The notes beneath the pieces are model-generated. The model did not search any database, was not told where the DNA came from, and saw only the letters and a program-made list of their open reading frames with translations. Shown here piece by piece: positions 898-15,955 of a DNA stretch of 64,000 bases. The position numbers and the translations under genes are program-made. The stretch is from the IMG/VR virus record IMGVR_UViG_3300010998_000005, positions 14,095 through 78,094 of that record. One strand, written 5' to 3'. Origin of the DNA: a virus (lineage: Duplodnaviria > Caudoviricetes). Numbering within the stretch: position 1 is the stretch's first letter; every line of letters begins with the position of its first letter.

Positions 898-1330
898 ATG
901 GATAATTGCGTACCTTTGCCGTTTTTCTCCGCTGTGTGCGCTTTTTCTCAGTATAATGGATAACTACAAAGGTACAAAGAGAAAAACGCAATACGTGCAC
1001 TCTTTGTGTTTATATATAATGTACGTAATATTGTGTGTGCTCTGTATCTTTGCTATCTTTGCTATGTTATTCCAGAACTTTTGATTTTTGCCACTTTTTA
1101 GCCGTTCTAAGCGCGTTTTTCTATCTTTGTGGATAACTACAAAGGAGCAACAAAAATAATTGATTTGTGCACGCACACAATTACACAAACAAAAAATGCA
1201 CCTAGAATGAGGTGCAAAGATACAAAAAAACGTACCTTGAATAAGATACGTTTTTATGTAGGTAGTCTGTAGGTCAACACTCATACCAACCGTGCACGTC
1301 GATATGTTTGCCATAGTTATTCCTCGTTTC

Positions 1331-4702: not shown

Positions 4703-4867
4703 AAAAGTGGCACAAGTTTACGGACGGCCCAATGAACATAAGCCTGTGGCAGGATAAATGATGTTGCCCATTAGTGGGGTCTGAATGCCATGCTCTCCGT
4801 ATTTTTCTTCTAAGCCTATGGATTGGGGTTACTCGGTCGGGGTTTGGTAGCGTTGTGTGCCACTTTT
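4703..4867 (+). ncRNA. Candidate structured ncRNA of unknown class
   Basis: 12-bp closing helix AAAAGTGGCACA (4703-4714) / TGTGCCACTTTT (4856-4867) with nested helices; lies between a promoter and tRNA-Glu. Confidence 0.45.
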
Positions 4868-6943: not shown

Positions 6944-7786
6944 ATGGAATATACGAAAGATAACCCACTTAAAGTAATAACCCTTTGCAGTGGTTATGAT
7001 AGTCAGTGCCTCGCCCTGAATAGATTAAAAGGGTGTTATCCCGATTTCGACTATGAATTAGTTGCTTGGTCTGAGTTTGACCCCGAAAGCAAAGCATCGC
7101 TGGAGAAGCAGCCTGCGGTTATAGCACATAATGCCTTATTCCCACAATGGAAAGACCGCAATCTTGGCGATATGACTAAAATAGAGTGGAATAAACTAAA
7201 TCTGCAATGCGACTTATTGTTTTATAGTACTCCATGCCAGAGTATTTCCGCGGCAGGACTGCAACACGGATTTGTTGAGAGTAGCGGTACACGTTCAAGC
7301 ATTATCTGGAACGTGCGTGATGCAGTAATAGCACTAAAACCAAAATTCCTATGCCTTGAAAATGTTAAAGCAATGGTGTCAGGCAAGTTCGTGGGAATGT
7401 TTAATCTGTGGCAGAGAGAGTTGGAAAAACTCGGCTATGCTAACTTTGCACAAGTCCTTAATTCTAAAGACTACGGCGTACCACAAAACAGAGAGCGTAT
7501 ATTCCTCGTTTCAATAAGGATTGACAATGAGAATGATTACCCTAAGTATTATTTCCCACAGCCTTTCCGTTTGGAAAAGAAACTCAAAGATGTGTTAGAG
7601 GACAATGTGGACGAGAAGTATTACCTGAGTGATGAAAGGGTGCAGGGTTTAATGGCAAGTACGGAGAAAGAGCAGGAGCGTGGAAATGGCTTTGCGTGGA
7701 ATCCGACAGATGGCAGCGGTGTTGCTTGCACCATTCAGACGACACAGAACAGGAAAACGGATAATTACTTGTTTGATGAACAATAA
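6944..7786 (+). CDS. C5-cytosine DNA methyltransferase, N-terminal catalytic part (motifs I-VIII)
   Basis: Motif I TLCSGYD, catalytic STPCQ, motif VI ENV, motif VIII DYGVPQNRERIF; motifs IX-X are missing. Probable start ATG 6944. Confidence 0.9.
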   Translation: MEYTKDNPLKVITLCSGYDSQCLALNRLKGCYPDFDYELVAWSEFDPESKASLEKQPAVIAHNALFPQWKDRNLGDMTKIEWNKLNLQCDLLFYSTPCQSISAAGLQHGFVESSGTRSSIIWNVRDAVIALKPKFLCLENVKAMVSGKFVGMFNLWQRELEKLGYANFAQVLNSKDYGVPQNRERIFLVSIRIDNENDYPKYYFPQPFRLEKKLKDVLEDNVDEKYYLSDERVQGLMASTEKEQERGNGFAWNPTDGSGVACTIQTTQNRKTDNYLFDEQ

Positions 7787-14393: not shown

Positions 14394-14580
14394 ACACAAT
14401 TAGACAATCAGCGAAAAAATGGTGCAGAACATTAAGGCATTAAAGTATGGCAGCAAAAGCGTGTATTCTTAATTGTAAACATTGGATGTGTGTGGAAAAT
14501 TACTGCATAGTTAGCGGTTGCAAGCCGCCAACGACTTACGACCCTGAAACGTGCCCTTATTTCAAATCAAAGAAGAAATT

Positions 14581-14880
14581 ATGAAATGGCGTAAAGTAAA
14601 GAAGCAGTTCAAGAAGGACAAACACAAGTATTTGGGACTAAACCTTGTCGCACAAGATTCGACTGGCATGAATGTGGGCATGGTAGTAAGTGACGTAAAG
14701 ATTCGTCCCGCTGGCGGAAAGCAAGTCTATTACGACTTTGAGGCTGAACCGATACAGAGCAAGTTGTGGGTGCCGAGAGAAGAGCCCAAAGGCTATTATT
14801 CCAACCACGAATTCAGCGCAACCTTTGACATAACTATTGATACACCGACAAAGGATTTGAAGAAATTATTGAATATGTAG
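14581..14880 (+). CDS. Hypothetical protein
   Basis: Probable ATG start MKWRKVKK within track ORF 14551..14880. Confidence 0.65.
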   Translation: MKWRKVKKQFKKDKHKYLGLNLVAQDSTGMNVGMVVSDVKIRPAGGKQVYYDFEAEPIQSKLWVPREEPKGYYSNHEFSATFDITIDTPTKDLKKLLNM

Positions 14881-14970
14881 ATTTTTATGGAATAAACTTT
14901 CTTAATAATCCTTAAACAATTTACGAATACCAAATATAAGTAGTATTTTTGCAAAAGAAATAAATAATCA

Positions 14971-15070
14971 ATGTGGCGTGTCCTACTTAAAGCCACAAAG
15001 ATAACAATAGATACTTGCAGGCGTGATGAACGGGTAGTAGGACACCTTAGTAGTCACGCTTGCAAAGTTT
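14971..15070 (+). promoter_or_regulatory. Structured leader of the replication initiator gene
   Basis: GTGTCCTACT (14978-87) / AGTAGGACAC (15036-45) and TTGCAGGCGTGA (15015-26) / TCACGCTTGCAA (15054-65). Confidence 0.6.
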
Positions 15071-15955
15071 ATGCAGGTTACAATGAAAAAAAAAAGAACA
15101 TCTTTTGTCTTTTATGGCGATTGGTATGATGCCATTTGCGGACTTGATGACAGTACGGCTTTAGAGGTCTGTAAATCCATTATGGCTTACGCCCTTGGAA
15201 GAGATGAGCCAAAACTATCCGACATGGCAAAAGCAATAATGATGCTTATACGACCCCAAATTGATAGAGATACCGAAAAATGGCTTAATACAAGAGAAAA
15301 GCGAAGTATCGCAGGAAAAAAGCATAAAGGAAATCAATATAGTAAAGTGGAACAAATGGAACAAAATGGAACAAATGGAACAAATGTTCCAACAATGGAA
15401 CAAAATGGAACAAATGGAACTGTTAATGTAAATGATAATGTAGATGTAGATGTTAATGATAATGTTGTTACCATAGATGATAACAAACAATTATCTTCAT
15501 TACATTCAGATAATATAATATCAACTAAAGTTGATGCGTCATCTTCTCCTGTCTGGGCAGAGAATTTTGTAAAATTCTTTAATAATGCGATAGACAGGAA
15601 TAATTCGGTAATAGCAAAAATAAGAATTATTCAAGGGAATAGGGAAAAGCAACTGAAAGCGAGAATAAAGCAATATGGGGAAGAAGCCGTATGTGAGGCT
15701 ATCACAAAAGCAACGCAATCTGCTTTCCTTAACGGGCAAAAAGGATTTATAGCAACAATAGACTGGATATTAAAACCAAACAACTTTCCAAAAATCTTAG
15801 AAGGTAATTATGACAACAGAGAAACAAGCGTATTTAGAACCAATGAATGTGAGCAGATTAATAAGCGGATTGCCTACGGACAGCAGACAACAAGACTTAT
15901 GCGAGAGGAAGAAAATGTCCTTAACCTTGCAAACGCGGACAATCCACCGTTTTAA
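15071..15955 (+). CDS. Replication initiator (DUF6291-like N-terminus, DnaD-like C-terminus)
   Basis: RTSFVFYGDWYDAI...IMAYAL N-domain, internal DNA repeats, and C-domain ATIDWILKPNNFPKILEGNYD. Confidence 0.75.
   Translation: MQVTMKKKRTSFVFYGDWYDAICGLDDSTALEVCKSIMAYALGRDEPKLSDMAKAIMMLIRPQIDRDTEKWLNTREKRSIAGKKHKGNQYSKVEQMEQNGTNGTNVPTMEQNGTNGTVNVNDNVDVDVNDNVVTIDDNKQLSSLHSDNIISTKVDASSSPVWAENFVKFFNNAIDRNNSVIAKIRIIQGNREKQLKARIKQYGEEAVCEAITKATQSAFLNGQKGFIATIDWILKPNNFPKILEGNYDNRETSVFRTNECEQINKRIAYGQQTTRLMREEENVLNLANADNPPF
15348..15420 (+). repeat. Iteron-like repeats (7x TGGAAC[AA]) inside the initiator gene; probable replication origin
   Basis: Copies start at 15348, 15357, 15367, 15376, 15396, 15406 and 15415, followed by an AT-rich stretch. 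Confidence 0.7.

Follow-up and report, generated by a model that had tools for sequence, protein, structure and literature searches.

The gap in front of the replication initiator gene of this phage holds a leader that, as covariation among its relatives confirmed, is a real folded RNA whose two hairpin loops pair with each other. The leader belongs to an RNA family that is absent from Rfam and is carried by phages of Bacteroidota (Prevotella-type gut and rumen). We favour, with some reserve, the reading that positions 14944–15082 of the window (the whole stretch of 64,000 nucleotides analysed) comprise a promoter and a structured 5′ leader of ~125 nt of the replication operon, which would act in cis as a gate on initiator expression. 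A first-pass annotation of the same DNA had proposed a pseudoknot-type leader before the initiator gene, and this proposal is now backed by covariation in 14 distinct sequences. The main outcome for that earlier finding is nevertheless that the plasmid-style antisense model attached to it fails in the comparative data.

The source record is a complete phage genome of 78,094 bp with direct terminal repeats and 40% G+C, of which the window covers bases 14095–78094. The leader lies in a 190-nt gap between a 109-aa ORF (14551–14880) and a 294-aa ORF (15071–15955). The N-terminus of the 294-aa product matches Pfam DUF6291 (3.8e-24), its C-terminus is DnaD-like, and the PHROGs matches of the protein carry the names DnaD-like helicase loader and replication initiation protein; on this homology, “replication initiator” is a reasonable name for it. 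The next genes encode a DUF6633 protein and the DnaN clamp. The N-termini of 15 homologues align with the in-frame ATG at 15083 and not with the upstream ATG at 15071, and translation probably starts at 15083, which would place the replication-initiator or helicase-loader gene at 15083–15955 on the + strand. ATG 15071 adjoins the base of the second leader hairpin, and the earlier statement that the stem ends 5 nt before the ATG holds for this codon; the probable start at 15083 is 17 nt past the stem. A run of ten As (codons KKK) is found just after the probable start codon (window 15083–15115) and could pair, with 80% complementarity, with a U-rich stretch 18 nt further 3′. This complementarity would amount to a weak hairpin that covers the AUG, or else simply to an A-rich start context of the kind favoured by Bacteroidota. 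Two HNH genes are also located near the initiator gene in this phage (9364–10728 and 11545–12108).

A Bacteroidota-type −7 box, TATTTTTG (consensus TAnnTTTG), is present at 14944–14951 on the + strand, where a forward element had already been noticed in the first-pass annotation. It is conserved among the relatives: 12 of the 14 family members have a TAnnTTTG box 9–33 nt ahead of the element. The sequence TTTACG (14920–14925, +), 20 nt upstream of the −7 box, is a predicted −33-like element, in place of which the relative L084 has TTTG; the promoter block at 14929–14963 is nearly identical in L084. The leader is probably transcribed from this forward TAnnTTTG promoter, and transcription would start near 14958. 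Elsewhere in the window, an AT-rich non-coding stretch at 1046–1062 contains two overlapping promoter-like TATCTTTGC boxes in tandem (TATCTTTGCTATCTTTGC). The promoter-plus-leader unit is bracketed by a perfect 9-nt inverted repeat (ATAAACTTT at 14892–14900 and AAAGTTTAT at 15064–15072), the left arm of which is upstream of the promoter and therefore absent from the RNA. The repeat could be due to chance, or could be a trace of cassette mobility.

The leader comprises two hairpins on the + strand, separated by a 12-nt linker. Hairpin 1 (14967–15002) has an outer helix AUC/GAU (14967–14969 with 15000–15002), a stem UGUGGC/GCCACA (14972–14977 with 14992–14997) and a 14-nt loop, which contains the core GUCCUAC of segment a (14980–14986). 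Hairpin 2 (15015–15065) is built in two tiers. Its lower stem is the helix b/b′ (15015–15026 with 15054–15065), of 12 bp including one G·U, and its upper stem is a 3-bp helix GGU/ACC (15033–15035 with 15044–15046); between them is an internal loop of GAA (15028–15030) opposite AGUA (15049–15052), and above them an 8-nt apical loop, AGUAGGAC (15036–15043). This apical loop holds the core GUAGGAC of segment a′ (15037–15043), which is complementary to a. In the window the pairing is extendable over 14978–14987, where a (GTGTCCTACT) and a′ (AGTAGGACAC, 15036–15045) are perfect complements over 10 nt. The interleaved complementarities a, b, a′ and b′ of the first-pass annotation are thus all present in the sequence. 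The two hairpins thus form a kissing complex within one RNA molecule, with the topology of a pseudoknot. Judged by its letters, which are kept in most family members, the GAA/AGUA internal loop is of the sarcin-ricin/loop-E type.

The computed folding energy of a 136-nt stretch is −37.2 kcal/mol (z = −3.9), and none of 200 shuffles folded as well; the values for hairpin 2 and for the a/a′ duplex (a 10-bp kiss) are −23.7 and −15.3 kcal/mol, respectively. Hairpin 2 is followed in the window by a weak U-tract only (AGUUUAU), and a short AUAGA/UUUAU extension of the hairpin covers AUG 15071. The segment a′ is located ~40 nt upstream of AUG 15083, in the tip of the hairpin and away from the initiation site. 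Neither a nor b has any further copy in the genome, which rules them out as iterons or repeated operators.

The family was assembled with covariance models. The first of these, built from the window alone and from the two nested hairpins only, matched L115 and L145; a rebuilt model matched L084 (E = 0.003), L283, L250 and L290; and a third model (R3) matched L319 and then L325, L326, L334 (two copies), L335/L337 and L246, the loci after L319 having been obtained after an IMG/VR pattern scan. The searches covered the fetched loci, and two rounds of rebuilding yielded 14 distinct sequences. Against R3 the window scores 104.8 bits with all five helices present, and it has the full twin-hairpin kissing-loop design, with promoter box, both hairpins, loop complementarity, a nearby start codon and replication genes. 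L084, from a metagenome scan, encodes an initiator 59% identical to that of the window, with an N-terminus that matches P0003; its leader has the same design in other letters, with CAACCAC in the loop of the small hairpin and GUGGUUG at the tip of the long one. L283 sits on an 81-kb phage contig (G001), and when 8 kb around the leader was compared with 14 kb of this contig, the sole nucleotide similarity was the leader itself (89.7% over 107 nt). L319 is a prophage-like copy and the one found in ~150 Prevotella-family genomes; the element is rare in cellular genomes, with one true match in ~300 Bacteroidales genomes sampled.

The window phage genome has a single copy of the element. On L250, a second, divergent copy was confirmed by folding. 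The two leaders of L250 (6326–6450 and 8643–8739, both on the − strand) carry the loop codes CAACCAC and GUGCGAG, and those of L334 (4664–4791 and 7427–7532) carry CAGUCAC and CAACCAC. The paired leaders are 2–3 kb apart on each of the two contigs, and the L334 leader at 7427 stands before genes of unknown function instead of an initiator gene. Among the other candidates, L111 was a weak model match to coding sequence without twin hairpins, L321 was an ordinary terminator, and a weak match at window 942–1045 had no twin hairpin; all three were rejected. L085, L120, L233 and L237 gave weak model matches only, and L142 was also a weak match. The exact promoter-block pattern had no match in IMG/VR, the GenBank phage collection gave only a chance-like match of 51 nt inside the gene, and loci reached through the protein, in IMG/VR and GTDB genomes, were all ≤36% identical over the full length and had no leader. 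A cmscan of Rfam 15 (E up to 1) returned no match for the window region or for four relatives, and no description of such a leader was found in a literature search.

Covariation among the leaders of relatives, which the first-pass annotation had named as a check on its pseudoknot, is extensive: 27 of 31 pairs changed on both sides among the 14 distinct sequences. Standard pairs fill 94.9% of the 413 pair cells, as against 35–47% when the partners are slid by 1–3 columns, although pairing counts of the nested helices are inflated by their part in the models and the alignment fit. None of 500 shuffles reached any of the five covariation measures, and a set of seven sequences gave the same picture. 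The kissing helix is exempt from this inflation, as it was never in any model; its seven pairs are 100% paired in the 12 aligned sequences, and five of the seven changed on both sides. Among the helices whose counts are inflated, the hairpin 1 stem is 98.7% paired in the family, with five of its six pairs changed on both sides; in hairpin 2, covariation extends to all 12 pairs of the lower stem, and the upper stem shows 100% pairing. Between L283 and the window, which have identical hairpins 2, hairpin 1 differs by a U-A to C-G and a C-G to U·G change. The TGTGGC/GCCACA hairpin (14972–14997) had earlier been taken for an alternative cage of a; the hairpin does enclose a, and it is a conserved, covarying structure that presents this segment.

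On the a side, the loop code is GUCCUAC in the window, L283 and L290, and CAUCCAC, CAACCAC, CUUCCAC or CAGUCAC in others, and the hairpin 2 tip carries the exact complement in every case. A sixth code, GUGCGAG/CUCGCAC, is found in the second L250 copy. Across the alignment, 32 cells are G·U and three are A·C, from which it follows that the folding strand is the sense (+) strand, the same strand that is read from the forward promoter. This excludes a duplex-DNA palindrome and makes a structure on the antisense strand unlikely.

In 13 of the 14 family members, the first or second downstream gene encodes a replication initiator, a helicase loader or a prim-pol helicase. One of these 13 (G001, via L283) has no recognised initiator; its unnamed ORFs are followed by a DnaB-like helicase. 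Where the replication gene comes second, an HNH endonuclease gene or a small ORF is inserted before it. HNH homing-endonuclease genes directly behind the leader are found in L283/L318 (3067–3852) and L335 (2090–2689, −), where they occupy the leader's start-codon position. The downstream initiators span PHROG families 270, 11233, 2514, 428 and 10469, or are replaced by a prim-pol helicase, and in six members measured by hand the start codon lies 14–29 nt past hairpin 2, whatever the gene. The L115 initiator (1400–2350) has only its C-terminal DnaD-like half in common with the window protein, its N-terminal domain being unrelated, so the leader stayed in place through a domain swap of the gene downstream. 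The variety of initiator families indicates that the RNA is tied to the replication operon and not to one protein, which argues against autoregulation by a specific initiator.

As a gate in cis, the element would set the share of promoter output that becomes initiator protein, and no antisense RNA would be required. In the window phage, a very stable, kissing-locked hairpin 2 would stand within the ribosome's reach of AUG 15083 and over AUG 15071. Sister lineages would have two further outputs. A strong U-tract after hairpin 2, which would make the hairpin terminator-like, is present in L290, L246, L115 and the second L250 copy. In four other leaders, a third copy of a (a″) ends 3–4 nt before the AUG, where it would compete for a′: L084 (385–404), L250 (6307–6325, −), L325 (−, upstream of ATG 2083) and L334:4664 (4792–4815). 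The a″ codes are CAACCAC in the first three and CAGUCAC in the last, and change together with a and a′. Since a″ matches the loop 1 code, the tip of hairpin 2 can pair with either loop 1 or the initiation region; the case for a″ is made by its position and by one triple covariation. The window leader has no complement of a′ near the AUG, and neither it nor L283 has an a″ or a strong U-tract. With 7–10 Watson–Crick pairs, the kissing interaction may also be constitutive, in which case the leader would be a fixed structural module (for stability or protein binding) rather than a switch.

In IncI/IncB plasmids, a leader pseudoknot controls repZ and is blocked by an antisense RNA, and pT181 and pIP501 use antisense attenuation. 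The first-pass annotation had carried this model over to the window, with an antisense RNA from an opposite-strand box, TATCTTTG (15003–14996), that pairs with a, blocks a/a′ and controls initiator synthesis as an Inc RNA does; we consider this very unlikely. The −7-like box is indeed present at 14996–15003 on the − strand and fits TAnnTTTG (the + strand reads CAAAGATA, of CAAAnnTA type), an RNA from it would start near 14989 and carry the a′ sequence at its 5′ end, and L115/L145 have a box at the same place (CAAAAATA). These are, however, two of 13 distinct lineages. The box is missing from the other 11, including L283 despite its identical hairpin 2, where a single base breaks it (CAAAGATT on the + strand; the box reads AATCTTTG); L250 reads CAAAGGAT at this position, and L084, L290, L319 and the remaining members have no box there. 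Seven of the eight box bases are accounted for by the GAU of the outer helix, two As of the spacer and the last two positions of the hairpin 1 3′ arm. Sense-strand structure therefore holds much of the box in place, and the box is probably a side effect of the constraints that the sense-strand helices put on these bases. When the leader is dinucleotide-shuffled, ~10% of the shuffles contain a box at some position, and the motif occurs 132 times in the genome, on both strands, against ~76 expected from a base-composition estimate, which means that many copies must be non-functional. No −33 element or terminator for an antisense RNA was seen on the minus strand, and a start inside loop 1 would give an RNA without the stem-loop typical of kissing antisense RNAs. 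Nothing in the leader was flagged by a scan for sigma-70 promoters and terminators, the sigma-70 model being inapplicable to Bacteroidota promoters. There is also no conserved leader peptide: the sole leader ORF (52 aa, 14971–15129) is not kept in relatives, its ATG being absent in L084 and L115 and an early stop being present in L283 and L250. Given the poor conservation, the overlap with helices and the shuffle rate, IncI-type antisense control is not supported, and the box is judged incidental.

Hairpin 2, alone or together with hairpin 1, could instead be released, by termination or processing, as a stable small RNA acting in trans, for negative feedback or immunity, with the loop code as its specificity determinant. 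The a′ segment in its apical loop would then pair with a, and with a″ where there is one, on further transcripts of the same phage or of a co-infecting one. We regard this as unlikely, although several features fit it. Strong U-tracts follow hairpin 2 in the four leaders named above, the a″ sites before the AUG covary with a and a′, and the loop codes differ between close relatives and between the two leaders on one contig (L334, L250), as orthogonal specificities would. The CI RNA of phage P4, which is made from a leader and pairs with seqA and seqC, is a precedent (PMC4825925). Against this, the window leader lacks an a″ and its U-tract is weak, kinetics favour pairing within one molecule over pairing in trans, nothing points to processing, and no curated small-RNA family of Rfam was matched. 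The corollary that the loop code is an address, by which a released hairpin 2 represses in trans those replication operons with a matching a (and a″), is likewise improbable. If it were true, related Bacteroidota phages, and even the two operons of one phage, would form orthogonal RNA immunity or incompatibility groups, and this would be RNA immunity of the P4/P1 kind, built on another fold and in another phylum. That the complementarities act as DNA, in an origin, a single-strand initiation signal or operator palindromes beside the initiator gene, is barely credible. Origins are often found next to or within initiator genes, and replication genes always go with the element; but the excess of G·U over A·C has one strand folding, the transcribed one, and loop–loop covariation is meaningless for duplex DNA. 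Moreover, no iteron-like repeats of a and b occur in the rest of the genome, the element has a promoter box upstream (9–33 nt) and a start codon downstream (14–29 nt in six members), and the initiators are non-homologous, which makes a common protein-binding site unlikely.

Among known systems, the leader resembles the rep leaders of IncI-alpha, IncB and IncL/M plasmids (ColIb-P9 repZ, pMU720 repA), in which an upstream hairpin loop pairs with a downstream leader site, the leader belongs to the initiator mRNA and the topology is that of a pseudoknot. It differs from them in that the partner is in the apical loop of a second hairpin and not beside the ribosome site, that no conserved antisense promoter, leader peptide (repY/repB) or Rfam match is found, and that the host is a member of the Bacteroidota, without Shine–Dalgarno-based initiation. 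Like those of pT181 and pIP501, the leader precedes a rep gene and has a terminator-like hairpin in some members; unlike them, it has no conserved antisense RNA gene, and the U-tract after hairpin 2 is weak in the window. The guanidine-IV (mepA motif) riboswitch combines kissing loops with a terminator-like second hairpin before the regulated gene, and riboswitch loops have a sequence-conserved ligand pocket and pair over few bases only. The present leader shares with guanidine-IV the two hairpins with kissing loops, the second just before the gene, whereas its loops vary freely over six codes with 7–10 perfect Watson–Crick pairs, and it shows no evident ligand pocket and no Rfam match.

A different likeness is that to phages P4 and P1/P7. 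In the satellite phage P4, the leader gives rise to CI RNA (seqB), which base-pairs with its targets seqA and seqC and so keeps transcription from reaching the replication genes (PMC4825925). For P1/P7, c4 RNA is referred to as a case of same-strand antisense control (Citron & Schuster 1990, cited in PMC8198154). As in these systems, a same-strand complementary element is found in the leader of a replication or anti-repressor operon, complementary sites are located upstream and, in sister lineages, at the downstream start codon, and matched mutations shift the specificity. Unlike in P4 and c4, the window leader has two sites and not three, the three-site arrangement being met in L084, L250, L325 and L334:4664; there is no Rfam match, the fold is another, the hosts are unrelated, and small-RNA processing is only putative here.

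The first-pass annotation had also linked the leader to a plasmid-prophage lifestyle, noting that no integrase was seen in the window. The window indeed has none, but the genome encodes a 285-aa serine recombinase (Pfam Resolvase, 2.1e-26; G000:C1:8409–8813, −; locus L338) ~5.3 kb before the window start, and its size points to an invertase or resolvase more than to a large serine integrase. Neither a tyrosine integrase nor a ParB was found in the genome, and the data speak neither for nor against the lifestyle inference.

Bacteroidota are dominant gut and rumen bacteria in which translation starts without Shine–Dalgarno pairing, and to our knowledge almost nothing is known about how their phages time or limit DNA replication. 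A covariation-backed RNA at the head of replication operons, whichever initiator follows, offers an easily mutated handle on this control. The leader is a new candidate RNA family for Rfam, and its natural, orthogonal 7-nt kissing codes are possible RNA parts for Bacteroides genetics.
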